DNA of 64,000 bases from an uncultured Planctomycetales bacterium (lineage in GTDB: Bacteria > Planctomycetota > PLA2 > JAEUHO01): the NCBI GenBank assembly GCA_964586025.1, contig CAZPGF010000001.1:29544-93543 (forward strand), in the 5' to 3' direction. The notes below the pieces were generated by a model. That model ran no database searches and had not been told where the DNA came from. It saw only the letters and a program-made list of their open reading frames with translations. Positions 161 to 61,794 of the stretch are shown one piece after another (the first letter of the stretch is position 1; each line of letters begins with the position of its first letter). The position numbers and the translations under genes are program-made.

Positions 161-559
161 TCAATTCCCGATCGGCTCGGGCTGGTACTCGTTTGCGGAG
201 ATCGAAACCGAGCCGCCGCGGACGACGATCGAGACCCAGGTCTCCCCCTCGATGTCCACGACCTGCTGCACCGCGACGCCCGCCTCGCGCAGGCGCACCG
301 CGACCGGATACGCGCCGTCGCGAACGTAGACGGTCGGCAGTTCGACCGTCGGAACCCCGCGGGGGTAGGTGACCACGTCGCGCACGACGGCGTAGGCGCC
401 GAGCGCGATGTCTGCCGTCACGTGGCCGCCGGCCGCCGCCAGGCCCGGGACCGAGAGCCACACATGGACGGGCGACTCGCGGCGCTCGACGTCGAAGCTC
501 TTCGAGCAGGAGCCGGCGAGGATCGCCAGGAAGAGGAGCAGGGGTGCCGGCCGCCTCAT
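161..559 (-). CDS. small hypothetical lipoprotein
   Basis: ORF track 161..559. N-terminus MRRPAPLLLFLAILAGSCS has a hydrophobic h-region and a lipobox-like LAGSC. Divergent from pyrB. Confidence 0.5.
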   Translation of the reverse strand: MRRPAPLLLFLAILAGSCSKSFDVERRESPVHVWLSVPGLAAAGGHVTADIALGAYAVVRDVVTYPRGVPTVELPTVYVRDGAYPVAVRLREAGVAVQQVVDIEGETWVSIVVRGGSVSISANEYQPEPIGN

Positions 560-677
560 GAGGGAAGGCTACCGGAACGGCGCCGGGTTGCGACCCCCCG
601 CGCACCGCGTGAACCGCTCGCGACACGCGGCGCGGGCGGTAGACTCGCGCCCCGCGGGCCCGAGGAGGACCGGACGC

Positions 678-1661
678 ATGGCCGACCAGGCAGCGGCTTC
701 GCTTGCCTTCCACGGCCGGAGCGTCGTTTCCAGCGAGGATGTCTCCCGCGACGACATCCTGCTGCTCCTCGATGTCGCGCGCGCGATGCAGCAGTGCGAC
801 GGGGGCGTCGGCCGAGGGTGGGGCGCGGTGCCCCACACCCTGGCCGGCCGCGTGCTCGGGCTCCTGTTCTTCGAACCGTCCACGCGCACGCGCCTCAGCT
901 TCGAGAGCGCCATGCTGCGACTCGGCGGCACCGCCATCGGCTTCGCCGACGCGCGCATGTCATCGCTCTCGAAGGGCGAGAGCCTGCTCGACACGATTCG
1001 CGTCGTCGAAGGCTACTGCGACGCGATCGTGTTGCGCCACCCGCGGGAGGGCGCCGCGCGGCTCGCCGCCGAGACCGCGCACGTCCCCGTGATCAACGGC
1101 GGTGACGGCAGCAACCAGCATCCGACGCAAACGCTGCTCGACCTCTTCACCATGCGTGAGGCGACCGGACGGCTCGACGGCCTCCGCATCGCGTTCCTCG
1201 GTGACCTGCGCTACGGACGCACCGTCCACAGCCTGGCGTCCGCGCTCTGCCACTTCGATGTCGAGCTCTCCTTCGTGGCTCCGGACGGCCTGCGCATTCC
1301 CTCCCAGTTGCGCGAACAGGTTGCCGCCCGCGGTCGTCTCGGACGCGAGGTGGAGCAGCTCGAACGACTGCCGCCGATCGACGTGCTCTACGTCACGCGG
1401 ATCCAGAAGGAACGGTTCCCGGATCCTCTGGAGTACGAGCGGGTCCGCGACGCGTACCGCGTGGATCGCGCCGCCCTCGAGCCGTTCGGCGACGACCTGA
1501 AGGTGCTCCATCCGTTGCCTCGTGTGAACGAGGTGTCGCCGGACGTCGATGACCATCCCGGCGCGCTCTACTTCCAGCAGACCCGCAACGGCGTCGCGGT
1601 GAGGATGGCGCTCTTGCACCTCATCCTGGGCGGGGCGCCGGAGGCGATCGCTCATGTCTGA
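678..1661 (+). CDS. pyrB: aspartate carbamoyltransferase catalytic subunit
   Basis: STRTR and HPTQ motifs plus an LGDLRYGRTVHS motif typical of ATCase. ATG at 678 chosen (MADQAAAS...) in frame with track ORF 408..1661. Confidence 0.9.
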   Translation: MADQAAASLAFHGRSVVSSEDVSRDDILLLLDVARAMQQCDGGVGRGWGAVPHTLAGRVLGLLFFEPSTRTRLSFESAMLRLGGTAIGFADARMSSLSKGESLLDTIRVVEGYCDAIVLRHPREGAARLAAETAHVPVINGGDGSNQHPTQTLLDLFTMREATGRLDGLRIAFLGDLRYGRTVHSLASALCHFDVELSFVAPDGLRIPSQLREQVAARGRLGREVEQLERLPPIDVLYVTRIQKERFPDPLEYERVRDAYRVDRAALEPFGDDLKVLHPLPRVNEVSPDVDDHPGALYFQQTRNGVAVRMALLHLILGGAPEAIAHV

Positions 1662-2097
1662 ACACGCGACGATGCGCGGGCCGAAGGACTTCCGCCTGGT
1701 CGATGGGACGGTGATCGACCACCTGCCCGCCGGGACCGCCAGCGAGGCACTGCGTCTGCTCGGGCTGCCCCGGGACGGGGCGGTCACGATCGGGATGAAC
1801 GTCCCGAGCCAGCGGATCGGTCGCAAGGACATCGTCCGGGTCGAAGGGCTCTACCTGTCGAAGGGCGAACTCGATCGCCTGTCGCTGCTGGGGACCAGCG
1901 TCACGGTCAGCATCGTGCAGGGCGGCGACGTGACGTCGAAGACCGAACTGACCGTGCCCGAGCGTCTCATCGGCGTGCTCACGTGCCGCAATCCGACCTG
2001 CATCACGAATGACGAGCGCGTGCCGTCGGTGTTCGTGCGACTCCCCGGCACCCCGATCCGCCTGCGCTGCCACTACTGCGAGCGCGTCGTCAGTTGA
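1654..2097 (+). CDS. pyrI: aspartate carbamoyltransferase regulatory subunit
   Basis: 147-aa product with C-terminal Zn-binding Cys pairs (CRNPTC...CHYCE), typical of PyrI. Overlaps the pyrB stop by 8 nt. Confidence 0.9.
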   Translation: MSEHATMRGPKDFRLVDGTVIDHLPAGTASEALRLLGLPRDGAVTIGMNVPSQRIGRKDIVRVEGLYLSKGELDRLSLLGTSVTVSIVQGGDVTSKTELTVPERLIGVLTCRNPTCITNDERVPSVFVRLPGTPIRLRCHYCERVVS

Positions 2098-2815
2098 CCC
2101 GCGGCGCGAGGCGCGCGAGCGCGCGGTCGATCGCCGGAACGAAGCTCGCCGCATCGAGCGTGCCCGCACCCGGGTGACGCGAGAAGAAGTGATTCAGATC
2201 CGCCAGGACGTCGAGCTGCGCATGCTGCGGGAGCGCGGCACGCAACTCCTCGGGAGGCGACACGACATCGTTCTCTCCGACGAGCACGACGGTCGGCGGG
2301 CGCAGCGCGCCGAGGGAGCGGGCCACGTCCGGATCGTAGGCGGCGTCGCTGACCGGACGACCGAGCAGCAGATTGCCGAAGTCGCGCGACGTTCGCGGCA
2401 CGCGTGTCGCCGGCGCGAGCAGGAGCAACCCGTCGAAGGCCGGCGTGCGCGCATCGCCCGACGCGAGGAGCGACGCGAGCACACGCGCGCCGTAGGAGAA
2501 CCCGCCCGCGAGGCGGACGCCGAGGCCCGCCCGGCGCGCCGCTTCGTCGGCGGCGCGGCGCCAGTCCTCGAAGTGGCCTTCGAGGTCGCCGTCGCTTCCC
2601 TCGCTCGCGCGGACGCCGCGGAAGTCGAAGCGCAGCGCCAGCAGGCCCGCCCGCGAGGCGCGCTCCGCGGTCGTCACCACGATCGGATGGTCCATGTGCC
2701 CGCCGTGGCGGGGATGGGGGTGCGCGACGACGAGGCTGCCGCGCGACGGGCCGTCCGGAAGGTGCACCCGCGCGTCGAGTCGGTGGACTCCCGAGGCGAT
2801 CGTCAGCTCGATCAC
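2090..2815 (-). CDS. alpha/beta-fold hydrolase (dienelactone-hydrolase-like)
   Basis: 241 aa; nucleophile-elbow-like GFSYG, overall alpha/beta hydrolase pattern. Overlaps the pyrI end convergently. Confidence 0.65.
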   Translation of the reverse strand: MIELTIASGVHRLDARVHLPDGPSRGSLVVAHPHPRHGGHMDHPIVVTTAERASRAGLLALRFDFRGVRASEGSDGDLEGHFEDWRRAADEAARRAGLGVRLAGGFSYGARVLASLLASGDARTPAFDGLLLLAPATRVPRTSRDFGNLLLGRPVSDAAYDPDVARSLGALRPPTVVLVGENDVVSPPEELRAALPQHAQLDVLADLNHFFSRHPGAGTLDAASFVPAIDRALARLAPRVN

Positions 2816-3582: not shown

Positions 3583-3796
3583 CCGGGGAGCGTACCCACC
3601 CGCTCCAGGGATTGGCGGAAGTGTCATGGCCGGGCTCCGCTCCGGGGGCGTCGAGCGCCCGGCGGCGAACGCGAAGGGAAGGGATGCCCTCGGCGGATTG
3701 AGTCGTCAGGGGTCCTGCGGCAGGAGCGCCGGGCCTGATCGCCCCCGATCTGCGAAGCCGTTCCTCCGCAAGGCCCAAGCCCCCGTGTACGACCAC

Positions 3797-4978
3797 TCAG
3801 GCGGACAGGAGGTCGAGGAGAACCGTCGCAAAGCTGCCCGGCGGTAGGACGAACCGTGCGATCACGTCGTGCGGCCCCGCGCGTACCAGCGACGCCTCGC
3901 GGACCGGCACGACGAGCGGGCGACGCAGGCCCGGACTGCGCACGAAGGGATTGCGCCACACCGCCGGATCGTCGCCCTCGGCCTCGAGGATCGCGGCCTC
4001 GAGGCTGCCCGGCTCGCCATGGGGTCCCCGCAGGCCGAACCCGGGAAGCGGGCCGGTCGGCACGTACCGCCCCGGTTCAGCCGGGGCATCGGCGCGGGCC
4101 GTGACCATGGCGCCGTCCTTGCCGAGCCAGGCGATGTCGCCCTCCAGCACCCGATTCCACGTCCCGGCGGCGATCCGCTCGTCAAGGACGCGGTTGAACA
4201 GGTAGCTCTGCCAGGCGGAGACCCAGATCCTCCGGCGGCTCTTCTCCACCGATTCGATCCACGACGCGGCGTCGCCGCCGCGCGCGCGATGCGACAGCGC
4301 GCGCTTCTCCAGCCGGTGCCGGATCGGCATCTGCTCGGCGGCGATCTCGAACTCGCCCCGGTCGAACGCCGCACGGGCCGCGCGCACGTCGGTGTCGTGC
4401 TCGAGCGGCGAGGGCGTGCCGACCACGCGTGCGAGCATCCCCTCGTAGTCCCCGTGGACGAGCGAGCGGCCGACCAGGTGGCCGTCGAGGCGGGTGCCGA
4501 AGCGCTGTCCGCCGTAGGCGTTCGGCATCCCTTCGCGGACGATCCGTTCGAGACACCGTCGAGCGCGCTCGAAGGCATCGGTGCGGATGTCGCGAATACG
4601 GATCGTGAAGCGGTTTCCGAGCAGATGGCCGATCTTCAGCGGTGCGTCGTGTCGCGCCGCCGAGAGCACGCGCCACCGGGGCGTGACGCATCGCGCGAGC
4701 CGATCCGGCGAGACCTTCGGGATCGTCAGGTACTGCGTCGTGACCGCGCGGCTGTCCTTCAGCCCGGCGTATCCGATGGTCCGCTCGCTGACGCGCGCCG
4801 CCTTGCTGACGAAGAGCAGCGCGTCGAACGTGCTCGTGAGGCGCTTCTCGATCTGGACGAGGGCGTAGCGGCCCGCGCCCGTGGCGCGGGCCAACGGGAT
4901 CTCCTCGACGCGGAAGTCCTCGGGCGCGACACGCAAACGCCCGCCGAGTCCGCCGCCGACGCCGGCGGGCCGGCGCAC
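3797..4978 (-). CDS. truD: tRNA pseudouridine(13) synthase TruD
   Basis: APEDFRVEE, GRYALVQIEKRLTSTFDAL and ERTIGYAGLKD motifs align with TruD. The 834-aa track ORF is a GC over-extension. GTG at 4978 sits about 18 aa before the PEDF motif, as in E. coli TruD. Confidence 0.8.
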   Translation of the reverse strand: MRRPAGVGGGLGGRLRVAPEDFRVEEIPLARATGAGRYALVQIEKRLTSTFDALLFVSKAARVSERTIGYAGLKDSRAVTTQYLTIPKVSPDRLARCVTPRWRVLSAARHDAPLKIGHLLGNRFTIRIRDIRTDAFERARRCLERIVREGMPNAYGGQRFGTRLDGHLVGRSLVHGDYEGMLARVVGTPSPLEHDTDVRAARAAFDRGEFEIAAEQMPIRHRLEKRALSHRARGGDAASWIESVEKSRRRIWVSAWQSYLFNRVLDERIAAGTWNRVLEGDIAWLGKDGAMVTARADAPAEPGRYVPTGPLPGFGLRGPHGEPGSLEAAILEAEGDDPAVWRNPFVRSPGLRRPLVVPVREASLVRAGPHDVIARFVLPPGSFATVLLDLLSA

Positions 4979-5037
4979 GCGGTCGGGGCGTTCCGGCGTG
5001 ACGCCGTCCGATGCGGACGTCGTCCGGTCGGCCGGGC

Positions 5038-6423
5038 CTACTCCCAGCGGTCCTTCCACTTCTTCTGCGGCACGATGCGGATGGACTCGATCGTGGCGCG
5101 GATCGCGGCGCCGTACCGCATCCAGCCTTCGCCGTGGACGCTCACGTAGAGGAGGAAGTCGTGGCTGCCCGAGAGCCAACCGAACTTGACGACGGTCTGG
5201 TCGCCGACGCTCGGATGCTTGCCGCCGATGACCGAGCGGTAGGCCGGGCCCGGCACCTTGAAGTCGGGTCCGACGTTCTTCGACTTCGGTGAGTCGAGCA
5301 TCTTGATCTTCTTCTCGAGCTCGCCGGACGACGCCTCCGGGTCGGGCTTGCGCCGCTTCTCGTCGGAGACGACATGGCGCGTCGCCTCGATCAGGTCCGG
5401 AACGAGCAGGAAGGTCGATCCGTTGGCGACCGTCGTCGGCTTCTTCGGCCAGGGATGCACCCAGACGTCGCCGATTGGATGCGACTCGAGAAAGCTCTGA
5501 TAGTGCTTGATGCCGACCTGTTCGGAGAGATTCACGCGAGCGACGTTGGCGACGTAGGGGATGGCCGAGAGGATGATCTGGTAGCCGCCGTACTGATCGG
5601 ATGCCTCGAACTTGACCAGGGTCGACTCCTCGGAGTCGCTCACCTCGGCCAGGTGCGGGTGCTTGAGCAAGACCAGCAGTTCCTTCTCGAACTCGTAGCG
5701 CTTCTCCTCGCCATCGCCGAGCGTCGCCCCGGCCGAGTCGCCGTCGGACGGAGGGCGTTCGGGGGGCTTCTCGGTCGCGTCGCTCGACTTCAACGCGTTC
5801 TGCGGGTCGAGGATCGTCAGCGCGTCGATCTCCATGAAGTCGAGGTCGGCACCGAGCGCCTCGGCGTCCTTCGCGGACGGCCATGCGTACATGCGCAGCA
5901 GGTAGACCCGCTTGTGGGCGAGCGCGACGAGCATGCGTCCCATGCACGTCCCCTCCTCGCCCGAAAGATTGTTCGCTTTGCCCTCGACGCGGAGCACGCG
6001 GCAGGGAATGTCGTCGTTCAGCGACTCCTCGCGCACGTCGACCGTGGGGGGGGTGCCGACGAAACGCGCGAGCAGGAAGGTGCGAATCGCCGCGTCGGCG
6101 GCCACCCCGTCGAGCGTCGCTCCTTCGGGCGCGGGCCGTATGGCGAGATGCAGGAGGCCGCCCTGACCGGAGCCCTTCGTACCGTCGAGCAACGTGTCGA
6201 GCCGGCGCTCCGCGGCGGTCACGATGCCGTGCTGCGCCCACGAGCTGTCCACCGGGAGGAGGCTCCAGCGCGCGGGGCTCTCCGGGACCTTCAGTTCGCA
6301 CTTGTGCTGGTCGCCACCGGACCAGAGTTCGGCGCGGACCTCGCGAGGGCCTCCCGCGAGGAGCGACGCCGCGACGGCGACGGCGAGCAGCGAGGCGAGT
6401 CCCGACCGATTCAACGAGCCCAT
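5038..6423 (-). CDS. secreted hypothetical protein (signal peptide), unknown function
   Basis: ATG at 6423 gives MGSLNRSGLASLLAVAVAASLLAG followed by a 440-aa Lys/Trp/Tyr-rich mature region. No family recognised. Overlaps the stop of the upstream gene. Confidence 0.6.
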   Translation of the reverse strand: MGSLNRSGLASLLAVAVAASLLAGGPREVRAELWSGGDQHKCELKVPESPARWSLLPVDSSWAQHGIVTAAERRLDTLLDGTKGSGQGGLLHLAIRPAPEGATLDGVAADAAIRTFLLARFVGTPPTVDVREESLNDDIPCRVLRVEGKANNLSGEEGTCMGRMLVALAHKRVYLLRMYAWPSAKDAEALGADLDFMEIDALTILDPQNALKSSDATEKPPERPPSDGDSAGATLGDGEEKRYEFEKELLVLLKHPHLAEVSDSEESTLVKFEASDQYGGYQIILSAIPYVANVARVNLSEQVGIKHYQSFLESHPIGDVWVHPWPKKPTTVANGSTFLLVPDLIEATRHVVSDEKRRKPDPEASSGELEKKIKMLDSPKSKNVGPDFKVPGPAYRSVIGGKHPSVGDQTVVKFGWLSGSHDFLLYVSVHGEGWMRYGAAIRATIESIRIVPQKKWKDRWE

Positions 6424-8285
6424 GCGAAACCCTTCTTCACGGAGTTCACCAGGTCCTTCACGCCCTTGTCGGCGGGGTTGCCGCCGATCTGGAGGCGCAC
6501 CCAGTACGTCGTCTGCTTGTGCTTGAAGACGTAGCCTTCCTCGACGTACGGAACGTCCTTGAAGCGCGCCGTGAACTCGTACTTCAGTCCCTTCTCGCCC
6601 TCGAATGCGCCTTGGCGGTGGTACGGCGGCTTTCCGGACTTCGAGCACTTCGCGGTGTCGCCGAGTCCCGCGAGCCACGCCTTCGCATGGTCGTCGATGA
6701 TCGACTCGGGCTCCTTTCGCTCGTTCTGCAATCGGGCGGCCGCCTCCGCCCAGATCGAGAAGTAGACGTACCCCTGGCCGTCCGGCGTTCGCCCCTCGAT
6801 CGCCATCTGCAATCCCTGCGACTTGGGCTGCGCGAGCGCGAGTTGGGCAAATGCCTTGGATTTCTTGAACGTCCAGCCGTCGGTCTCGGTGTAGCCGCCG
6901 AGGCTGGAGGCCGTACGAGGCGCCCACGAGAACCCGGGCAGCGCGAGCTGGGTCTCCTCGCCGAGTCCGATGCCCCGCGATCCCGTGAACGTGGCGAGCC
7001 CGTCCGTCGGAACCAGCGGCCCGGCGACGAAGTCGGTGGCCTCGATGAACCGCACGCCCTTCATCAGCTCGGCGAGGGGTCGTCCGAACGTCCGCGTGCG
7101 GTCCTTCTCGTATCCCTCGATCGTGAAGATCCAGCGGTAGAGCCAGCCGCGCAACACCGTTTCGATGAAGACGGCCGATGCGGTCCGGCCGTCGGCGCGC
7201 GTGCCCTCGCGTGTGACCATGATCGCCTTGCCGTTCCCGAGGTCGATCGGGCGGATCTGGGACCCGGTGCTGGCGACCTCGGAGAATCCGTAGATCTCCG
7301 GGATCAGGCGGTCGAACTCGGGCGAACGGACGAAGTCGGCCGGATCGTGCTGCCCGGCGAGCTCGAACAGGACGAGATAGCCCTGAAGGACGTTGGACTT
7401 CGGCGCGTCCTCGGGGTCGAACTCACCCTTGGTTCGCTCGACGCTCGCCATGACGTGGACGACCGGGGAGATGGAGGTCCTGTTGCCGTCCCGCTGGAAC
7501 GCGTTCTTGATGTCGCGGATCGGCGACCGCCAGGAGAAGGGCCCGTTCGCAGGAAGGGTCCACTCCAGGTTGTAGCCGGTGAAGGTCAGTTTGTTGCCCT
7601 CGCGGACCGGCCCGTCGGCCGGCCACGGCTCCTGGTCCGACGCACCGTCGTCCCGCTGCTCCGATCGCGGCGCGGAGCCGGCCTCGGTGAACGTCTCGGT
7701 GACGGTCTTCGTGCCGCCGCCCTTGATCAGCTGGAACCCGTCCCGAAGGGCGTTCAACTCGTCCAGGCGCGTCTCGTGCACGTCGTTCTGGATCAACAGG
7801 ATCAGGTGGTAGAAGGTGCCGTCACGCTCGATCGCATACCCGCGAATCTGGATCGACGTGTCGTGTTTGGTCTCGCCCGCGAGGATGACGACCTGACCAT
7901 CGATCCCGGCCAGCACCGTGGGGCGGCGCACGGTCGTTCGGACGCCGGCCGAAGCGAACGCCGCGAGCGAGGAGCGCATCTCCTCGATCCGCTCGTCGAC
8001 CGAGAGCCCGCCGGTCGGGCTCGACGTGCCGATCGCGACGACGTTCTTGTCGTCCGACACGGCGCGTGCGAACGAACCTGCGTCCTTGTCGATGGAAGAC
8101 AGTTCCTGCCACGTGTACTCGAAGTTGGGCAGGGTCCAGCGCACGTTGGCGCCGGGGTAGGAGGCGGTCAGATCGTCGGCGGCGCCGACGACGCCGTGCC
8201 CGGTGGCGAACACCAACGCAAGAACCAAGAGCGGTCGCAAGACGGCGCGGGACGCTCGGGCGGGAGGACGAGGGGAAGGGGACAT
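6411..8285 (-). CDS. secreted hypothetical protein (signal peptide), unknown function
   Basis: ATG at 8285 gives MSPSPRPPARASRAVLRPLLVLALVFATGHGVVGA. 624 aa, no recognised domain. Its 3-prime end overlaps the start of the 5038..6423 gene by 13 nt. Confidence 0.6.
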   Translation of the reverse strand: MSPSPRPPARASRAVLRPLLVLALVFATGHGVVGAADDLTASYPGANVRWTLPNFEYTWQELSSIDKDAGSFARAVSDDKNVVAIGTSSPTGGLSVDERIEEMRSSLAAFASAGVRTTVRRPTVLAGIDGQVVILAGETKHDTSIQIRGYAIERDGTFYHLILLIQNDVHETRLDELNALRDGFQLIKGGGTKTVTETFTEAGSAPRSEQRDDGASDQEPWPADGPVREGNKLTFTGYNLEWTLPANGPFSWRSPIRDIKNAFQRDGNRTSISPVVHVMASVERTKGEFDPEDAPKSNVLQGYLVLFELAGQHDPADFVRSPEFDRLIPEIYGFSEVASTGSQIRPIDLGNGKAIMVTREGTRADGRTASAVFIETVLRGWLYRWIFTIEGYEKDRTRTFGRPLAELMKGVRFIEATDFVAGPLVPTDGLATFTGSRGIGLGEETQLALPGFSWAPRTASSLGGYTETDGWTFKKSKAFAQLALAQPKSQGLQMAIEGRTPDGQGYVYFSIWAEAAARLQNERKEPESIIDDHAKAWLAGLGDTAKCSKSGKPPYHRQGAFEGEKGLKYEFTARFKDVPYVEEGYVFKHKQTTYWVRLQIGGNPADKGVKDLVNSVKKGFAWAR

Positions 8286-8425
8286 GCGGGAACGCGCTCC
8301 TCTCGGCGGGTGACCTCGGCGGCGGAAGGCGCCGCCCATGGTAGCGAACGCCGGCCCACGAGCCGGCGCACGGGTCGGATGTTCCTCCGTCGCGGGGATC
8401 ACCCCCGCCGGGTTCGTCCTGGGGG

Positions 8426-11014
8426 TCACTCCCCGGCGTCGTCGGCCGAGCCGTCGGTCCCCTCGTCCGCCGTCTCGTCCCCGCCGTCTTCCGGGCGGAC
8501 CCAGGCCATGCTCACCAGTCGGTCGCCGTCCGGGACGTCGATCGCCCGGACGCCCGCCGTGGAGCGGCTCATCGGCCGGAACTGCTCGCTCGTGACGCGC
8601 ATCCGGATCGACTTGCCGCCCTGGGTGATCAGAATTACCTCGTCGCCGTCGAGGACGGAGCGCGCGGCCACGACCTCGCCGTTGCGAGCAAGGCCGTCGG
8701 GCGACACGTTGCGAAGTCCCTGACCACCGCGTGACTGGGCGCGGTACTCGGCGAACGCGGTGCGCTTCGCGTAGCCGCGTTCGAACACGGTGAGCAGCGA
8801 TCCCGGCAGGGTCGCGACGTCGCCGTCGGCCGACTCGATCCGCACCTCGTCGCGGGCGATCGCCATGTCGACGACATGGTCGTCTTCCTGGAGGCGGATG
8901 CCTCGCACACCGCGGGTCGAGCGACCCATCTCGCGTGCGTCGGAGACCGGGAATCGGATCGACAGGCCGCGCGCGGTGACGAGCACCACCTCGTCCTTCT
9001 CATCGACGAGCGCGACGCCGAGAAGCGCGTCGCCTTCGACGAGCTGGATCGCGATGATGCCGCCGCGATGGATGTGCGCGAACTCCGACAGCGCGGTGCG
9101 CTTGACGAGGCCGTTGCGCGTCGCGAACAGGAGAGCGCGCGCGTCGCCCATCTCGCTGACCGGCAGCACCGCACGAATCCGCTCCTCGGCGCCGAGATCG
9201 AGCAGGTTGACGACGGCACGGCCCTTCGTGTAGCGCCCGAGATCCGGCAGCGCGAACACGCGATCCTTGAACACCCGTCCGGTGTGCGTGAAGTAGAGCA
9301 TCGTGTCGTGCGTGTTCGCGACGAGCAGGTGCTCGACGAAGTCCCCCTCCTTCGACTCGGTGCCCTTGATGCCCTTGCCGCCGCGGCGCTGGCGGCGGTA
9401 CTCGGCCAGTCCGGTTCGCTTGATGTAGCCCTCGTGCGAGAGTGTGATCACCACGTTCTCGGGGGCGATCAGATCGATCGAGGTGAGATCGTCCTTGGAG
9501 TCCTCGATCCGGGTCCGGCGCGAGACCGGGAATCGGGCCTTCAGCGCGAGCATGTCCTCGCGGAGGATCTGCGTGACGCGCTCGTCGCGCGCCAGGATGT
9601 CGCGGTAGTCGGTGATGCGCGCGAGCAGGTCGGCGTGTTCCGCCTCGAGTTCGCGGCGCTGGAGGCCGGTGAGGCGCTGAAGGCGCATTTGCAAGATCGC
9701 GTCGGCCTGCGCGATCGAGAAGCCGAACCGTTCGATCAGCCCGGCCTTCGCGGTCTGCGGGTCGGGGCTGGCGCGCAGCAGCGCGACGATCTCGTCGATC
9801 AGGTCGAGCGCGCGCAGCAGGCCGGAGACGATGTGGTCGCGCTCTTCGGCCTTGCGCAGGAGGTACCGGGTGCGCCGCGTGACGACCTCGCGGCGATGGG
9901 TGACGTAGGCTTCGATCAGGCGCACCAGGCTGCACAGCTCGGGGCGGCCGTCCACCAGCGCGATCATGTTCACGCCGAGCGTCTCGCGCAGCGCGCTGTG
10001 CTTGTAGAGCTGATTGAGGACGAGTTCGGGGTCGACGTCGCGACGGAGTGCAACGACGATGCGGATGTCCTTGCCGGACTCGTCGCGGACGTCCACGATG
10101 CCGTCGACGCGGTCGCCCTTCGCCAGGTCCGCGATCTTGGCGACGAGCGCCGCCTTGTTGACCTGGTAGGGGATCTCCGTGACGACGATCTGCGCGCCGC
10201 GGCGACCGCCTTCGGGTTCGTGGATCTCGCAGACCGCGCGCATCTCCAACGCGGCGCGGCCGGTCGTGTAGGCGTCGAGGATGGCCGCCCGCCCGCAGAT
10301 GCGCGCGCCGGTCGGGAGGTCCGGGCCCGGCAGGTGCTTCATCAGGCCGTGGACGTCGATCGCGGGGTCGTCGAGGTAGGCGAGGATCGCATCGGCCACC
10401 TCGCCGGGGTTGTGGGGGGGGATGGACGACGCCATCGCGACCGCGATGCCCGCGCCGCCGTTGATGAGCAGGTTGGGAAAGCGGCCGGGCAGGACGGTCG
10501 GCTCGAGGCGGGACTCGTCGTAGTTCGGTCGGAAGTCGACGGTTTCCTTGTCGAGGTCGTCCAGCAACTCGACCGCGGCGTGCGTCATGCGGCACTCCGT
10601 GTACCGCATCGACGCAGGCGGATCGCGATCGATCGAACCGAAGTTGCCCTGGCCCTGGACGAGCAGCTCGCTCATGTTGAACGGCTGCGCCATTCGCACG
10701 AGCGTCGGATAGATCGCCTGATCGCCGTGCGGGTGGTAGTTGCCCATCGTCTCGCCGACGACCTTCGCGCACTTGATCGTCTTGCGACTCGGGCCGAGAT
10801 TCAGGTCGTTCATCGCCACGAGGATGCGGCGCTGACTCGGCTTGAGTCCGTCGCGCACGTCGGGGAGCGCGCGATCGACGATCACGCTCATGGCGTAGCG
10901 CAGGTACGACTGCTTCAACTCGCCCGCGATGTCGAGGTCGAGGATCCGTTCGCTCCCACCACCGCCGCCGGAGGGCGACGGGTCCACGGATTCGGCGGAT
11001 TCGGAAGTCGACAT
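8426..11014 (-). CDS. gyrA: DNA gyrase subunit A
   Basis: [13 protein letters not shown] and [18 protein letters not shown] motifs with the beta-pinwheel C-terminal domain. ATG at 11014 (MSTSESAES...). Confidence 0.9.
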
Positions 11015-11267
11015 CGTCCTCTCTCGAAGCCTCCCGGGAGGGGTCCCGAAGTTGCCTCCGGGGCGCCGCGAACCGCCGCGAACGCATGGCATCGCGGCCC
11101 GACGGCGGGTAGCGGGGCATGGTACCCTCCGCGGCTCGCGGACCGACGGGAATTCGGGGGTTTGCGGCCTCGGAGAAGCCATGGTTCAGCGCGTCGCGCG
11201 TCGCGTCGATCGCCCGGTCGATCGCCCCGTCGCGTCCCGTCGGCCAACGCTTCGGCGAGTTCTCGCG

Positions 11268-12398
11268 ATGGCACTCTTCCTCGCGCTCCTCGGTTGCGGC
11301 GAGCCGTCGGGACCGAGCGATGGTTCGAGCGCCGAGTTCGCTTCCCCGTGGAGCGAATCGGACCGTCAACTGAACCTCGCGGGCACCGCGACCGTGATGG
11401 GCGCGACCCACGGCCGCGTCTTCCGAGACCGCATTCGCGCGCTTCGCGACGAGTGGCTGCCGGAACTGATCGACGCGGGCACCGGTGCCGGCGATCGCGA
11501 GGCGTTTCGCCGGTACCTCCGTTCGATCGTCGATCAGGTCGCGTTCCACCTGCCGGAAGCGTTGCGCGAGGAACTCGATGCGATGGCGGACGCGGCTGGA
11601 CTCGAACCGCTCGACCTGCTCGAGTTGGAAGTCGCTCGCGACGCCGTGCGGATGCGCGACGGTGCGCCGCGCATGTCGGGCGCGTTCGCCTTCCATCGCG
11701 CGATCGACCACGACCACGGCGGGCCCCGTCGCGGACTTCGCGTGACCTGGCACGGACCCGACGCCCGGCGCGTCACCGCGAACGGCGTGCGCATCGTGCG
11801 TGTGCCTTCCGACGGTCGCCCCGCGACGATCTGCGACACCTGGCCCGGCATGCTCGGCGGCATCGTGGTGACGCGACTCGCCGGAACGGAGCGCGGGCGG
11901 AGCGGCGGGCGAGCGGATGCCGACCTCGTGATCGGAGCGGCCGAGGTGGAGGTGCCACCGTCGCATCGCGGATTCGGCACCGGTCTGCCGCTGTCGATGT
12001 CGCTGCGGATCGCCGCCGAAGCGTCCGAGTGGAACGGCATGCGGGGACTCGGCGGCAGCATGGGACACGTCGCGTTCGCGTTCGACCCTCGTCCTGGCGC
12101 GGACCCCGTGGCCGTCGTCGGCACGTTGGCGTCGGTCGCTCCCGACGACGTCGTACGGGCGCTTGACGCGACCGGCGTGCCGGTCCTCGTAGCCGGACCG
12201 CATGCGAACCTCGCCGGCCCCGAGCAGACACAACTCGACGAACGCGTCGCCGAGGCGCCCGAGTCGGCCTATCGGGAGTTCGCGCAACTCGCCGACGTGC
12301 CCGACGCGTCGAGTGCGTCCCACGCCTCGCTCGAACGGACGTACGGGGGATCCGGCGAAGGCGACGACTCGTCGGGCCTGGCCCCGACGCGTCGCTGA
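11268..12398 (+). CDS. hypothetical lipoprotein
   Basis: MALFLALLGCGE has a lipobox LLGC. An alternative upstream ATG lies at 11181. Divergent from gyrA. Confidence 0.5.
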   Translation: MALFLALLGCGEPSGPSDGSSAEFASPWSESDRQLNLAGTATVMGATHGRVFRDRIRALRDEWLPELIDAGTGAGDREAFRRYLRSIVDQVAFHLPEALREELDAMADAAGLEPLDLLELEVARDAVRMRDGAPRMSGAFAFHRAIDHDHGGPRRGLRVTWHGPDARRVTANGVRIVRVPSDGRPATICDTWPGMLGGIVVTRLAGTERGRSGGRADADLVIGAAEVEVPPSHRGFGTGLPLSMSLRIAAEASEWNGMRGLGGSMGHVAFAFDPRPGADPVAVVGTLASVAPDDVVRALDATGVPVLVAGPHANLAGPEQTQLDERVAEAPESAYREFAQLADVPDASSASHASLERTYGGSGEGDDSSGLAPTRR

Positions 12399-15783: not shown

Positions 15784-17085
15784 ATGCAGTCCCGCAAGGC
15801 TTCGCGACGGCTCCGCGACGAGCGGGGCATGGTCCTCGTGTGGGTGAGCCTCTGCCTGGTCACGGTCGCCGGGATCATCGTGGCGTCGATGGGACGCCAG
15901 CAGGCTCTCGAGGGCCTCTCGGAGTTCGAGTCCGCCTCGCCGGCCCACGCCCGGGACGTCGCCGAGGCGGGCATCGTGGACACGCTGGCGTGGTTCCGCC
16001 GGCAGACCGATCAGCCGGTCGCCGCGTTCACGCCTCGCCGCGACCTCACGCTCGACCCGCCGATCAACGAGACCGACGACCCGACCCGCGGACTCATCCG
16101 CTCCTACGAGGTCGCTCCGCGACTCTGGGCGCGTTACGAAGTGCTGATCGGCCGCGAGGCGGAGTCGTTCACCGACGAGAACGGCAACGGTCGCTTCGAT
16201 GCGGGCGAGGAGTTCGACGACGCGAACGGCAACGGTCGTCGTGACGAGGCGCTCGGCGTCCGCGACGTCACGGAGCGGCGCGGTGAGACCGGCAACGGGA
16301 TCGTCTGGCGCATCGAGAGCCGCGGCTCCGTGTTCCGCCGCATCGACCCGACGATCCCGCTCGGCGAGGGCGTCAACGCCCGCATCTCCGAGGCACGTCT
16401 CGCGACCGAGATCCGGCGGATGGCGATCAACATGCCGGCGTCGGCGGCGATCTGCGCGGCGCGCGGCGACGGAGTCACCATCGGCGCGCGCACCCGCATC
16501 GCCGGTGGTCCCGGGGCGGGGATCGCGTACGCGTCGGGCACCGGGTCGGCGCTGCTGCTCACGGGCGCCCAGGTGACCGGGAGTCCCGCGCACACCGGGA
16601 TCCCCGGGCTCGACGTCGATGTCGAGTCCGTCTTCGGCACCGATCTCGCGGGGGTGCGCGCCGCGGCCGGCTTCGTGACCGACGACGTCGCGACGCTCCC
16701 GTTGCCGCTCCCGTCGGCCAGCCTCACCGTGTTCGAAGGCAGCCTGACGTTCAACGAGAAGCGTCCGCTGCGCGGAACCGCGATCCTCGTGGTCACCGGC
16801 GACTGCACGATCGAGACGGGCAGCAACAGCTTCTTCAACGGCGTGCTGTGGGTCGGCGGCAACCTGACCGTGCGGGCCCCGACCCTGCTCACGGGAACCA
16901 TCGTCGTCTCGGGCAAGGCCGACCTCCGCGGGCTCGGCGGCGACCACGTGGAGGTGCAGCAGGACGACGAGGTGGTCCACCGCCTGCTGCAGACCTTGGG
17001 CCAGTACCGCTTCGCCAAGGCCATTCACCGCGTCGAGGGGGAAGACGCTCCGCGTCGACTCTCCGGCGAAGGGGGAGGTGCGTGA
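15784..17085 (+). CDS. PilX/GspK-like minor pseudopilin-type protein
   Basis: N-terminus [15 protein letters not shown]|MVLVWVSLCLVTVAGIIVASM resembles PilX/GspK (no Glu at +5). Contains DENGNGRFDAGEEFDDANGNGRRDE Ca-binding-like repeats. GGAGGG sits 6 nt upstream of ATG 15784. Confidence 0.6.
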   Translation: MQSRKASRRLRDERGMVLVWVSLCLVTVAGIIVASMGRQQALEGLSEFESASPAHARDVAEAGIVDTLAWFRRQTDQPVAAFTPRRDLTLDPPINETDDPTRGLIRSYEVAPRLWARYEVLIGREAESFTDENGNGRFDAGEEFDDANGNGRRDEALGVRDVTERRGETGNGIVWRIESRGSVFRRIDPTIPLGEGVNARISEARLATEIRRMAINMPASAAICAARGDGVTIGARTRIAGGPGAGIAYASGTGSALLLTGAQVTGSPAHTGIPGLDVDVESVFGTDLAGVRAAAGFVTDDVATLPLPLPSASLTVFEGSLTFNEKRPLRGTAILVVTGDCTIETGSNSFFNGVLWVGGNLTVRAPTLLTGTIVVSGKADLRGLGGDHVEVQQDDEVVHRLLQTLGQYRFAKAIHRVEGEDAPRRLSGEGGGA

Positions 17086-20000
17086 TGTACCGCCGCGCGT
17101 CGGGCTTCAGTTTCATCGAGATCCTCATCGCTGCGGGTCTCGTCGCGATCGCGTCGATGGCGGCCGCAGCGCACGTGACCCGCAGCGCGCAGCGTTCCGA
17201 CTGGGCGCAGGACCGCATCTTCGCGCGTCAGAAGGCCCTCTCGATCCTCGCCGAACTCCGCGCGTACGTGGAGGGCGGCGACGGCGAGGTCGCGGCGGAC
17301 CTCGACGGCTTCGACGACGGCGTGGCATGGCGCCCGAACCTGACGATCCAGCCCGATCCGAACGATCCGGGCGCATTCCTGCATCCGGGGCATCCGACGT
17401 CGGCGAACGTCGAGAACGAGGGCGTCTGGGCGTGGCAGCGCCAAATCTCCGTCCGGCGTTTCCCGAGCGTCAACACCCGCGACCTCCGGATTTGCACGGT
17501 GCGCGTGTTCCGCCGCCGCGTCGGAGACGTCGATCCCGGTGAACTGATGGCCGAGGTATCCGGCGTCATCCGCACCCTGGGCGACGCGTTCCCGAGCACC
17601 CAGGTCTACGACGTCTACCTCCTCGCGCTCGACAACGTGCCCGGCTGGTGGGTGTTCATGGACGCGATCCAGCCGTTCGTCGAGGCGACCCTCTCGGATC
17701 TCGAGTCCCGCAATCCCGGCCTGCGATTCCGCACGCACTGGATCACCAAGGCGGGCTTCGGTCGAAACGAGGAGTACGCGCCGTACACGAACGAGACGCG
17801 CATCAGCACCGACAACACGCCGTGGGCGTACGTGTATCCGGGGCGGATGCCGGCCGACTCCGCCGCCCAGCGCTACTACGTCGCGCACCGATTCGGTGGT
17901 CGCGTGAACCTCGACGGGGAGATCACGCCGAGCTTCTACAACGACCTCGCGCCGATGGAGCCCTACACCGACACGAACGGCAACGGTCAGCGCGACGCGG
18001 GCGAACCGTGGGACGATCTGGACGCCGACAACACCTGGGACCGCGGCAACCCCGTGCCCTACGCGCTCGCGGACATGCACAACCACTGCATGCGCAGCCC
18101 CGATGAGGTCGCGCGCTTCGAGCAGCGCGTCGCGGTGGGCCAGGAAGACGCCGAGGTGCCGACGTGGCGCATCCTCCTGGATCGGATGATCGCGATGCCG
18201 GATCGCTACCACAACGCGATCCTGATCAACCTCCACGGCGAGCTCCTTCCGATGCCGGCGGTCCGCAACTACAGCGACGCTGCGAAGATCCCCGACCTCC
18301 GTCCCGGTTGGCGCGCCGTGACGCACCCCGAGCGCCTTCGCTCGGTGCGGGTCGCCGGCGCTCCGGCCTCGTCGCAGGAGATCGCTTGGCGCGTGTACGC
18401 CTACAAGACGTCGTGGTCCGGCACGGCCGGCGCCGAGGCCCTCACGTCGCAGGAGGAACCCTTCGTCGACGCCAACCTGAACGGCATCTACGACGACGGC
18501 GAGGCGTACGACGACTGGAACGGGAATGGGTTCCGCGACGAGGGCATCCCGATCCACATTATGATCCCCGGCGGCCGCTTCGATCAGTCCGTCAACATCG
18601 GTTCGACGCCCTCGCTGACGATCCAGTGCATCTCGGGTGGCATCGACGCCAACGGCGACGGAACGGTCGAGGACTACGCGAACTGGGCCAACGCCGCGCG
18701 ATACCCCGACGCCTTCACGGATGTCAACGGAGACACCCGGCGTCAGCGCGCCGAGGCGTACCTCGACCTGAACGGGAACGGGACGCGCGACGTCGATGAG
18801 CCGTTCAGTGACCTGGACGGGGACGGGGTCTACACGGCCGTCGACGAGCCGCTGACCGCGGACTACGACGGCGACGGGATCCTCGACCGGGCCGGTCCGG
18901 AGGAGACGTACACGGACGTCAACGCCAACGGCCGCTGGGACGCCGCCGAGCCCTACCTCGACGTGAACGGCGACGGGACTCGCAACGGACCGGCCGCCTC
19001 ACCGGCGCCGCTGTGGCGGCCGTGGGACCCGCTGACCGACGACGCGACCAACGCGTCGGTCCTCGCCGACTACGTCTACAACTACGGCGAGCCGTTCCTC
19101 GATCTCGACGGCGACTCGGTGTGGGATCCTGCCGAGCCGCTCGTGGACGGCAACGCCAACGGCGTCCACGACGGAGGCTTCCGCCGCGGTGAGATGTGGT
19201 ACCTCGTACGCTACGACGACGAGGGCACGTCGCTCCTCCTCCACGGAACGCCGCTCGAGACGCCGCGCACGTCGTCCGGGCGCGGCCTGTCGTCGACCCG
19301 ACGTCTGTACGAACTCGACTACATCCCGTGCCCGACGCCGACGAGCACGTCCGCCGGCGGCGATCGCTTCGCCAGGAACCTCTACTCGACGAGCAGCCGC
19401 CCGAAGAACACCGCGCGTTGGCGCATCGCGATGTCGCCGACGGCGATCCGCGACGGGTTCGCGTCCGGCGACGCGATCGACCGCGTCGTGCGTCTCGAGA
19501 CGCGTTTCGGGCGCGACCGGACGACCGGCACGATGTGGCCGACGCGCTGGCAGCCGGCGAACAAGAGCGCGTCGTTCACGTGGTACACCGACTCCGTCGA
19601 GGACGTCCCGTTCAGCGAGCGATACCAGTTCATGGGGGATCCGCGGCACATGCCGTACATGGACCTCGACCGACACGGGGAGACGAGCCCGAACGGCTAC
19701 AACTGGTTCTTCGACGACTTCACGACGGGGGCCGGCAACGTCTACGACGACTGGCCGGCCTTCGACGGAGCCCGTCTCCGGAACTCGTGGCGCGGCAACC
19801 GCGGCAGTTCGCTCGACGTGCCGCGTCTGATGTCGTGGTTGCGGTACGCGCTCGTCCGCAACGAGGCGATCTACACGACGCTGACGGGCTTCTCGTACTA
19901 CTACCTGTCCGTCGGCGGGGACATCGGGTACGACGTCGACAACGGGTTCGCGAACAGCATCCCGATGGACGGCGCCCCGTTCGGTCTCACCGGCGACGTG

Positions 20001-21203
20001 TTCGAGAACACAATCACCGACGGCAACGGGACGAGTTCGATCCGCGGCAGCCTGAAGTTCGTCCGGAGCAACGACGGCACCGCGACGAGTTATCGCGACG
20101 CGGGCGGCTACTGGTGGAGCAAGCCGTGGATCGGCGAACTCTTCCCCGACAGCGCCTACGTCGACCAGTGGGCGGAGTGGGGCAACCTGCGCGCCGAGGC
20201 CTCGACGAACGCCGGAACGTTCCGCCAGATCCGTCGCGGGGAGATCACCACCTCGCAGCAGCCGAACGGCACGCAGCTCATCAACACCTACGCGCGGCTC
20301 GCCGAGGAAGGCAGCACGTCGCTGTTCAACATCGGTTCGTCGTCGTCGACGTTCCATCACCAGTACGCCGACGGGCGCACGGGTGGCCTGGTCGAGGACG
20401 GCCCGCAGCTTGCGGCGAACTACAACTTCCCGCTGCCGAACCGCGCCGCGATCAGCCGCCCGTTCGCTCTCAACGTGAACTACGACGGCTCGGTCGGCGA
20501 CGAGTTCTCGTTTACCACGGAGTTCCCGCGCTTCAGCGCGTCGGTCGTCCGCCGCTTCTTCGATCACGAGTTGGGCACGATCGGCAGCGCCCTCGTGCGC
20601 CTGCGCGCGCCCGGGACCAACCCGCGCGGCGGCTATGTCGTGGTGAACGGCCTGGACCGCACGATCGAGAGCGGCTCGGCGTTCATCGCCCGGTACAGCA
20701 TGCTGTCGCTGATCCACAGCTACTTCGCGGGCGGCGTCAGCGATCCGAACCGGATCCGCCAGCTGCCGCGCGTGCAGATCCGGACGCCGACCTTGCTGAC
20801 GGAGATCGACTCGCCGTCCACGATCCCGGTGTCGTGGTCGATCCAGTGGAGGCGATGGGACGGCTTGAAGTACACGACGAACTACCCCGACGACTTCGCG
20901 GAGAACGAGGCGGACCTGATCTACGTGCTCTCCTACAGCAAGGACGGCGGCGCGACGTGGCTCAACATGATGGACGAATCGCCGGCGACGCTCGGCGAAC
21001 TGCCCTGGGACGACGACGCCGGGACGCCGGACGCCTCCCGCACGCTCGTCGACTCGGCGCCGGCGGCCGACGAGACTTACCTCTGGGACACCCCCGCCGC
21101 GAAGCTGCCGAAGGGGTCGTATCGGATCCGCGTCGAGGCGTATCGCCGCACCGAGCCGCTGCACTACGCACAGCACATGGAGAAGATCTATGTCAATCGC
21201 TAG
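17085..21203 (+). CDS. giant (1372 aa) prepilin-type N-terminal cleavage/methylation-domain protein with Ca2+-binding Asp-rich repeats
   Basis: MYRRASG|FSFIEILIAAGLVAIASMAAA is a class III signal (Gly-1, Phe+1, Glu+5). ATG overlaps the upstream stop (TGATG). Long extracellular region with many D-x-N-x-N/D-G-x-x-D repeats. Confidence 0.7.
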   Translation: MYRRASGFSFIEILIAAGLVAIASMAAAAHVTRSAQRSDWAQDRIFARQKALSILAELRAYVEGGDGEVAADLDGFDDGVAWRPNLTIQPDPNDPGAFLHPGHPTSANVENEGVWAWQRQISVRRFPSVNTRDLRICTVRVFRRRVGDVDPGELMAEVSGVIRTLGDAFPSTQVYDVYLLALDNVPGWWVFMDAIQPFVEATLSDLESRNPGLRFRTHWITKAGFGRNEEYAPYTNETRISTDNTPWAYVYPGRMPADSAAQRYYVAHRFGGRVNLDGEITPSFYNDLAPMEPYTDTNGNGQRDAGEPWDDLDADNTWDRGNPVPYALADMHNHCMRSPDEVARFEQRVAVGQEDAEVPTWRILLDRMIAMPDRYHNAILINLHGELLPMPAVRNYSDAAKIPDLRPGWRAVTHPERLRSVRVAGAPASSQEIAWRVYAYKTSWSGTAGAEALTSQEEPFVDANLNGIYDDGEAYDDWNGNGFRDEGIPIHIMIPGGRFDQSVNIGSTPSLTIQCISGGIDANGDGTVEDYANWANAARYPDAFTDVNGDTRRQRAEAYLDLNGNGTRDVDEPFSDLDGDGVYTAVDEPLTADYDGDGILDRAGPEETYTDVNANGRWDAAEPYLDVNGDGTRNGPAASPAPLWRPWDPLTDDATNASVLADYVYNYGEPFLDLDGDSVWDPAEPLVDGNANGVHDGGFRRGEMWYLVRYDDEGTSLLLHGTPLETPRTSSGRGLSSTRRLYELDYIPCPTPTSTSAGGDRFARNLYSTSSRPKNTARWRIAMSPTAIRDGFASGDAIDRVVRLETRFGRDRTTGTMWPTRWQPANKSASFTWYTDSVEDVPFSERYQFMGDPRHMPYMDLDRHGETSPNGYNWFFDDFTTGAGNVYDDWPAFDGARLRNSWRGNRGSSLDVPRLMSWLRYALVRNEAIYTTLTGFSYYYLSVGGDIGYDVDNGFANSIPMDGAPFGLTGDVFENTITDGNGTSSIRGSLKFVRSNDGTATSYRDAGGYWWSKPWIGELFPDSAYVDQWAEWGNLRAEASTNAGTFRQIRRGEITTSQQPNGTQLINTYARLAEEGSTSLFNIGSSSSTFHHQYADGRTGGLVEDGPQLAANYNFPLPNRAAISRPFALNVNYDGSVGDEFSFTTEFPRFSASVVRRFFDHELGTIGSALVRLRAPGTNPRGGYVVVNGLDRTIESGSAFIARYSMLSLIHSYFAGGVSDPNRIRQLPRVQIRTPTLLTEIDSPSTIPVSWSIQWRRWDGLKYTTNYPDDFAENEADLIYVLSYSKDGGATWLNMMDESPATLGELPWDDDAGTPDASRTLVDSAPAADETYLWDTPAAKLPKGSYRIRVEAYRRTEPLHYAQHMEKIYVNR
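17965..19180 (+). repeat. protein-level array of thrombospondin-type-3 / EF-hand-like Ca2+-binding repeats inside the giant pilin-like gene
   Basis: Repeated motifs DTNGNGQRDAGEPWDDLDADN, DANLNGIYDDGEAYDDWNGNGFRDEG, DVNGDTRRQRAEAYLDLNGNGTRDVDEPFSDLDGDGVYT, DYDGDGILD, DVNANGRWDAAEPYLDVNGDGTRNG and DLDGDSVWDPAEPLVDGNANGVHD. Confidence 0.5.
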
Positions 21204-61739: not shown

Positions 61740-61794
61740 AGCAAGGCACGGGCGTCTCGCCGCGCCATGATGCGGCGCCTCGGGAGCACGACGC

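Follow-up and report, generated by a model that had tools for sequence, protein, structure and literature searches.

Positions 5038-8285 of a 64,000-nucleotide stretch from an uncultured Planctomycetales bacterium (GCA_964586025.1, contig CAZPGF010000001.1, positions 29,544 to 93,543; hereafter the window) carry two minus-strand genes, which an initial annotation had described as a pair of secreted proteins of unknown function. We refer to them as gene B (6411-8285) and gene A (5038-6423). The window has a GC content of 71%, which produces long spurious open reading frames (ORFs) in every frame, and real genes were picked from the ORFs by third-position GC (GC3) and homology. Both members of the pair are read as real genes, with GC3 values of 0.894 for B and 0.905 for A, homologs in other genomes, AlphaFold2 (AF2) models, and Foldseek matches. 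Gene B encodes a protein of 624 amino acids (aa) with three predicted Mog1/PsbP-like domains, and gene A a protein of 461 aa with two, each behind an N-terminal export signal. The length of 462 aa previously given for A had included the stop codon, while that of B is unchanged.

The start codon of B is the ATG at 8285, preceded in the sequence by GAGAGGAG, and that of A is the ATG at 6423, preceded by GAAGAAGGG. The two genes overlap by exactly 13 nt (6411-6423, minus strand), as annotated, with ATGGGCTCGTTGA forming the first 13 nt of A inside the end of B. Together with the GAAGAAGGG ahead of the A start and an arrangement kept in relatives, this overlap supports the earlier proposal that A and B are translationally coupled, which we regard as probable from the gene layout. 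The pair lies co-directionally between gyrA and truD, and Pfam identified both flanking genes on the minus strand: gyrA (8426-11014) upstream of B by DNA_topoisoIV (2e-144) and DNA_gyraseA_C (1e-60), and truD (3797-4978, 5' end about 5000) downstream of A by TruD (2e-96). The start of truD has two candidates, a GTG at 4978 that leaves a 59-nt gap after A and a GTG at 5059 that gives a 22-nt overlap with A. The 140-nt spacer between gyrA and B (8286-8425, minus strand) is a possible promoter region for B and A, and measures 42-361 nt in relatives. A promoter and terminator scan of 3600-11400 returned no sigma-70-like or terminator-like site on the gene strand.

At the sequence level, neither protein shows a domain in Pfam, NCBIfam, PADLOC, or PHROGs, in line with the earlier statement that both lack a recognizable one. 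The library searches yielded only sub-threshold chance matches (Cmr6 at E of about 0.01 and a "spurious protein" motif). Even at E ≤ 1, Pfam matched neither A nor B, and among 49 members of the B family it gave nothing relevant or consistent at E ≤ 0.1. Likewise, neither protein matched the Pfam PsbP family model, and profiles of 5 and 49 sequences found no match among PDB sequences. The statement does not hold at the structure level, where the remote-homology search that had been suggested for the pair recovered a known fold while the sequence libraries returned no family. In AF2 models built on 5-sequence alignments, each domain follows the element order b-b-b-(a)-b-b-a-b-b-b-b-a, and both models superpose on proteins of the Mog1/PsbP-like fold, which is defined by a central antiparallel beta-sheet with helices on its flanks. 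Searched against the PDB with Foldseek, the two models produced the same list of matches at probability 1.00 and E from 1e-5 to 1e-2. This list comprises PsbP, CyanoP, and PsbP-like proteins (2xb3, the best with a TM-score (TMt) of 0.71, 2vu4, and 9grx_0), Mog1, DcrB (6e8a), EagT6/SciW, Tsi3, 3lyd, and the mycobacterial proteins LpqN (6e5d), MTC28 (4ol4/4pws), and Apa (5zx9). Only B additionally matched TplEi (5h7z) and PA3488 (5xmg). Based on the list common to both models, A and B are predicted to be arrays of Mog1/PsbP-like domains.

In B, domain 1 (aa 38-200, 7686-8174) is modeled with a predicted local distance difference test score (pLDDT) of about 80 and the order b-b-b-a-b-b-a-b-b-b-b-a-b. 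It is followed by domain 2 (aa 222-415, 7041-7622; pLDDT 65-85), an inter-domain segment (aa 416-464, 6894-7040) carrying the motif D.V.GP...DG.ATF.G.RG, and domain 3 (aa 465-624, 6414-6893), which was tied to domain 1 by hhalign and shows the strongest conservation in the family. The model of domain 3 is of low confidence (pLDDT about 40), because only 5-sequence alignments were fed to structure prediction. In A, domain 1 (aa 32-205, 5809-6330; pLDDT 70-85 over aa about 69-200), paralogous by hhalign to B domains 1 and 2, is joined by an acidic, proline-rich linker (aa 206-237, 5713-5808) to domain 2 (aa 238-461, 5041-5712). The linker is variable and gapped in the alignment, and pLDDT falls below 50 over aa 196-237. 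Domain 2 has a PsbP-like core, supported by Foldseek and a pLDDT of 80-90, and a conserved lysine-rich insertion of about 70 aa (aa 322-394). The Foldseek alignments of this domain span 216-240 columns against targets of 148-188 aa, suggesting that the matched unit is the insertion-bearing domain. All of these segments are read on the minus strand.

Profile comparisons link most of these domains to one another. Within B, hhalign paired domains 1 and 2 at a probability of 99% (E 6e-18), domains 1 and 3 at 96% (E 3.7e-9), and domains 2 and 3 at 90% (E 1.6e-6). A domain 1 was paired with B domain 1 (E 1.2e-11) and B domain 2 (E 6.7e-12) at probabilities of 97.4-97.5%. These relationships emerged with domain-wise profiles from a deeper alignment; whole-protein hhalign of A against B with shallow profiles reached only E 0.059, and BLASTP of A against B gave no match. 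As judged from these profiles, the significant homology between the two proteins is that of the B domains with the N-terminal domain of A, which makes A and B, on sequence grounds, distant paralogues that probably arose by duplication of one domain. The last 40 residues of the two proteins had been thought mutually similar. This is not borne out by BLASTP, and the profile alignment of A domain 2 with B domain 3, which is collinear and runs to both C-termini, has a low probability and E values of 0.19 and 0.036, which are not significant. A domain 2 against B domain 2 was also of low probability (E 0.003). The impression of similar C-termini goes back to the way the fold ends in both proteins, with three strands and a helix, and has no statistical support of its own.

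In the alignment of 49 B-family sequences, invariant or near-invariant positions are mostly Gly, Pro, Trp, and Tyr. Domain 3 adds a conserved polar set (E497, R499, Y506, W537, E582, Q599, and D606), and conservation peaks over aa 561-624, where E582, Q599, and G602 are invariant. The inter-domain motif (aa 416-437, window 6975-7040) has an invariant P423, with G422 and R437 conserved in at least 94% of the 49 sequences. AF2 models it as disordered (pLDDT about 25), and it may, speculatively, serve as a docking strand or become ordered only within a complex. The A family conserves H315, G318, W325, P326, R396, and the lysine-rich insertion in domain 2. The 49 B sequences share no invariant set of Ser, His, Cys, and Asp that would constitute a catalytic signature, and no catalytic-type pattern was found in the A family.

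Both N-termini have the features of Sec-type signal peptides: a basic n-region leads into 11-17 residues of hydrophobic core, and the c-region is of the small-x-small type, with positions -3 and -1 taken by small residues. In B (aa 1 to about 35, 8181-8285, minus strand), hydrophobicity peaks at 2.6-2.9 over aa 16-29, with four Arg residues ahead of the peak and a likely cleavage site, placed by eye, at VGA/AD. In A (aa 1 to about 31, 6331-6423, minus strand), the hydrophobic core covers aa 9-24 and inspection places the likely cleavage at VRA/EL. These features, identified by hydropathy and inspection, are kept in 47 of 49 B homologs and in all 8 A homologs, which agrees with the classical signal peptides reported before. 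Hydropathy revealed no further hydrophobic segment in either protein. In neither protein does a Cys close the hydrophobic region, and regular-expression matches to a lipobox occur in only 4 of 49 B and 1 of 8 A homologs, at inconsistent positions. Without a lipobox cysteine, a lipid anchor is not expected. The features of the N-termini thus suggest that both proteins are cleaved and located outside the cytoplasm, and the specialized role there that had been proposed for the pair is plausible.

A word-index search retrieved only four relatives per protein at about 50% identity, in Planctomycetota metagenome-assembled genomes (MAGs) and metagenomes; the closest homologs share 50-54% identity (E down to 1e-209 for B). 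An exhaustive HMMER scan with the B profile yielded 89 representatives at 50% clustering, 45 of them at E < 1e-30 and most 560-625 aa long, and the 49-sequence alignment of the B family reaches down to about 20% identity. A further word-index search with the A-family profile added two more members only. With a 10-sequence profile, a collection of species-representative genomes gave only 2 loci, both labelled Planctomycetota bacterium, and a scanned collection of metagenome contigs gave none. All sampled carriers of the pair are Planctomycetota MAGs or metagenomes. As far as sampled, the family pair is restricted to one group of Planctomycetota.

Gene order was compared across these loci, as had been suggested for the gyrA-truD interval. 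Each of the 11 lineages sampled has an A-type gene 3' of its B-type gene. For divergent loci, the A- or B-type identity of the genes was established by hhalign (L016, E 6.5e-30; L014, E 2.4e-11; L005, E 4e-92). At the B-A junction, the 13-nt overlap is shared by the closest relatives (L001-L004 and L007/L008), while elsewhere the genes are separated by gaps of 4-29 nt. Apart from L014 and L015, gyrA precedes B wherever the upstream gene could be identified, and truD follows A wherever the contig extends far enough and the gene is identifiable. Thus, the pair is kept in all sampled relatives and lies in the order gyrA-B-A-truD in most of them, which speaks against its being a variable insertion. 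A larger block also recurs, consisting of an M48 peptidase, a hypothetical gene, gyrA, B, A, truD, a ParA-like ATPase, and an alpha/beta hydrolase.

Some loci depart from this order or add to it. Among the loci sampled, gyrA adjacency is broken only in L014 and L015, from the lineage of B homolog P0066: the fragment upstream of B (3-347 of L014) carries a phytochrome PHY domain (E 4.5e-20), and the A-type gene is still found 3' of B. At L017 (5055-12187), a "B" protein of 964 aa is accompanied by gyrA and truD called as short fragments; this locus resembles the usual gyrA-B-A-truD block in an assembly riddled with frameshifts more than it does a genuine fusion. In L001 (13690-17860) and L007 (12287-17401), the alpha/beta hydrolase is followed by a hypothetical gene, trkA, and trkH, and in L007 then by pyrI and pyrB. 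In the window (408-2815), the hydrolase (2090-2815, minus strand) directly abuts pyrI (1654-2097, plus strand) and pyrB (408-1661, plus strand). Compared with L001 and L007, the trk block is thus missing or relocated in the window.

Elsewhere in the window, dnaG (59739-61739) adjoins rpoD (61795-63513) on the plus strand, the classic macromolecular-synthesis arrangement (59739-63513), which marks the window as core chromosome. Divergent from gyrA lies an ORF of 489 aa (10929-12398, plus strand) without a Pfam match and with a GC3 of 0.80, below its neighbors. It carries an N-terminal lipobox-like motif, LALLGC, and may encode a lipoprotein; genes of 327-392 aa without a Pfam match hold this position in L001, L007, L011, and one JGI contig. 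A further ORF of 1451 aa (16848-21203, plus strand) has a coding-like GC3 of 0.90 and no Pfam match. Its product is rich in Trp, Tyr, and Asn and poor in Lys, and may be another large exported protein of an uncharacterized family.

Taken together, the best overall explanation, which we favor with moderate confidence, is that A and B are a native, exported, co-produced pair of PsbP-fold proteins that would act in the envelope as a heteromeric binding or scaffold unit without enzymatic activity. The tool results underpin the coding status, the fold, the paralogy, the features of the export signals, the native codon usage (discussed below), and the conserved synteny. In the proposed scenario, one Mog1/PsbP-type domain would have been duplicated to give three copies in B and two in A. 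Both proteins would be exported in soluble form to the periplasm or cell envelope, given their Sec-type signal peptides without a lipobox. Since the pair is always kept together and appears to be translationally coupled, the two proteins are expected to be made together from a coupled message, and would most likely come together as one unit with five PsbP-like modules. By analogy with DcrB, LpqN, CyanoP, the immunity proteins of type VI secretion systems (T6SS), and the Eag chaperones, the task of this unit at a membrane-associated complex would be to hold on to a partner protein, a hydrophobic segment, or a lipid. We infer the location, the A-B complex, and the absence of catalysis from translational coupling, co-conservation, and the characterized members of the fold.

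A more specific version of this scenario is considerably more tentative. Here, the pair would be a lineage-specific, near-essential envelope component, a five-module PsbP-fold heterocomplex that docks or chaperones hydrophobic cargo across the periplasm, with the motif at aa 416-438 of B as the docking strand. The cargo could be lipids, lipoproteins, or membrane-protein segments, making the component analogous to DcrB and LpqN, though evolved independently.

Several observations weigh against the proposed binding or scaffold role. The models derive from 5-sequence alignments, and B domain 3, the most conserved part, and the motif at aa 416-438 are modeled at a pLDDT of only 25-45. A domain 2 lacks a significant sequence link to the other domains (hhalign E 0.003-0.04). 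No functional meaning is apparent in the conserved linkage to gyrA and truD, which may simply be an inherited gene order. Moreover, the fold is functionally promiscuous and thus predicts a mode of action, namely binding, rather than a function. Finally, residues E497, R499, Y506, E582, and Q599 of B and H315 and R396 of A could form an unrecognized active or ligand site.

The last point leads to the possibility that one or both proteins are unrecognized enzymes or ligand-binding sensors built on a PsbP-like scaffold. The residues just named are invariant or nearly so even though identity within the families falls to 20-30%, and the most conserved segments are those modeled worst by AF2. However, a protein-protein interface would account for conserved charged residues just as well, and the families show no Ser/His/Asp or Cys/His pattern. 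To our knowledge, there is also no enzyme among the characterized members of the fold that matched A and B, and we consider an enzymatic or sensory function rather unlikely.

A comparably low likelihood applies to a role outside the cell, in which A and B would be secreted or surface-exposed adhesin- or antigen-like proteins, as are mycobacterial Apa and MTC28. The fold matches to Apa (5zx9) and MTC28 (4ol4/4pws) and the signal peptides without a lipid anchor or transmembrane segment are compatible with such a role, and a lysine-rich composition would suit binding to anionic surfaces. Yet by inspection the C-termini have no recognizable secretion-system signal or sorting motif, and the core-gene behavior and strict pairing fit a housekeeping role in the envelope better, even if this comparison discriminates only weakly.

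It is much less probable that A and B are periplasmic T6SS immunity proteins of the TplEi or PA3488 (Tli5) kind, whose tandem PsbP-like domains would neutralize type VI phospholipase effectors, either incoming or of the cell itself. Some structural evidence points in this direction: TplEi (5h7z) is the top Foldseek match of B (E 1.8e-5, 391 columns over two domains), PA3488 (5xmg, 7wdk) also matches B, and Tsi3 matches both models. Both A and B bear export signals, and there is a precedent in PA3488, which gives immunity against its cognate effector PldA by binding and neutralizing it (PMC9550806). The superpositions over two domains are poor, with TMt values of 0.24-0.27 and a root-mean-square deviation of about 16 Å, so that only the single-domain similarity to immunity proteins is solid. 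The genes tested within about 6 kb on each side include no effector, phospholipase, or T6SS gene; they are gyrA, truD, the ParA-like ATPase, the alpha/beta hydrolase of 241 aa, pyrBI, the M48 peptidase, and the 489-aa ORF without a Pfam match. Nor was any such gene found among the called genes of related loci. Immunity genes are typically variable and effector-linked, whereas the A-B pair keeps its place in a block of housekeeping genes throughout the family, making an immunity function unlikely.

The least tenable alternative is a horizontal origin, in which A and B would have entered between gyrA and truD as an acquired islet. This idea came from the composition of the pair, which had been called atypical. 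Total GC is indeed lower in B (0.667) and A (0.674) than in the window (0.712), but other genes of the window are equally low, including gyrA (0.688), an ABC ATPase (0.671), and rpoD (0.646), so the pair lies below the window mean without standing apart from native genes. The reported richness in Lys and Trp, in a setting rich in Arg, was recovered, with Lys at 4.8% in B and 6.1% in A (0-3% in most neighbors), Arg at 7.1% and 5.6% (9-14% in most neighbors), K/(K+R) at 0.41 and 0.52 (0.00-0.23 in most neighbors), and Trp enriched at about 2.1% in A and B; Tyr, also said to be enriched, barely differs from the neighbors. By contrast, GC3 is uniform at 0.89-0.91 and equals that of gyrA (0.912) and truD (0.898). 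Scored against the pooled codon usage of 12 other genes of the window, the synonymous codon log-likelihoods of B (-0.82) and A (-0.77) fall within the native range of -0.68 to -0.93. As both GC3 and synonymous codon choice are native, the GC dip of the pair is confined to codon positions 1 and 2 and so comes from amino-acid content, and the composition of A and B is not atypical at silent sites. Furthermore, the gene block is conserved in relatives whose B proteins are only 20-54% identical, and scanning the entire window with Rfam gave no match at the gathering score, tRNA families included. The initial annotation had itself named uniform codon usage and conserved placement as grounds for abandoning horizontal acquisition, and since both were observed, this origin is refuted. 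A and B are old, native, vertically inherited genes of one Planctomycetota lineage, and they illustrate how amino-acid content on its own can produce a GC dip where the genome is very GC-rich.

Having weighed these alternatives, we retain the reading of A and B as an exported PsbP-fold binding or scaffold pair, which can be compared with characterized proteins of the same fold. For annotation, the B family, with about 89 representatives and no Pfam model, is a candidate for a new Pfam entry, and the pair is a reasonable starting point for work on the envelope of a little-studied group of uncultured Planctomycetota. A literature search on PsbP-like proteins in Planctomycetes found no paper. The finding opens no long-standing question and should be at most a modest surprise to specialists.

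Among known systems, PsbP and CyanoP provide the best single-domain structural match, and they are likewise exported, soluble, non-catalytic docking proteins. They differ in being single-domain proteins, whereas A and B are predicted multi-domain arrays (3 + 2) without a Pfam PsbP match. In addition, PsbP, CyanoP, and PsbP-like proteins are extrinsic subunits of photosystem II and NDH, and nothing photosynthetic is present among the tested genes of the window. DcrB, a periplasmic lipoprotein of Salmonella and E. coli (DUF1795), and the mycobacterial proteins LpqN, MTC28, and Apa share the fold and are also exported envelope proteins. A and B differ from them by the missing lipobox cysteine, which argues against a lipoprotein of the DcrB/LpqN type, by the absence of sequence similarity, and by their tandem domains in a coupled gene pair. 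TplEi (5h7z) and PA3488/Tli5 (5xmg, 7wdk) are periplasmic as well, and their chains of about 300-350 residues align over 379-453 Foldseek columns with more than one B domain. Unlike them, A and B have no adjacent effector gene, lie in a housekeeping context, and reach a multi-domain TMt of only about 0.25. The Eag/SciW chaperones (DUF1795) for the transmembrane domains of T6SS effectors have the same fold (6xrf, 6xrb, 6xrr, 9mvg) and also act by binding. Eag proteins are cytoplasmic, and their genes lie beside those of effectors. The matched Eag chains are single-domain proteins of about 140-150 residues, whereas A and B are 3-4 times larger, carry signal peptides, have no effector neighbor, and, with gyrA and truD at their sides and no Pfam match, do not qualify as Eag-like chaperones. 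A and B are thus a new, uncatalogued pair of sequence families with a known fold, in which the 3 + 2 domain, two-gene arrangement is new.

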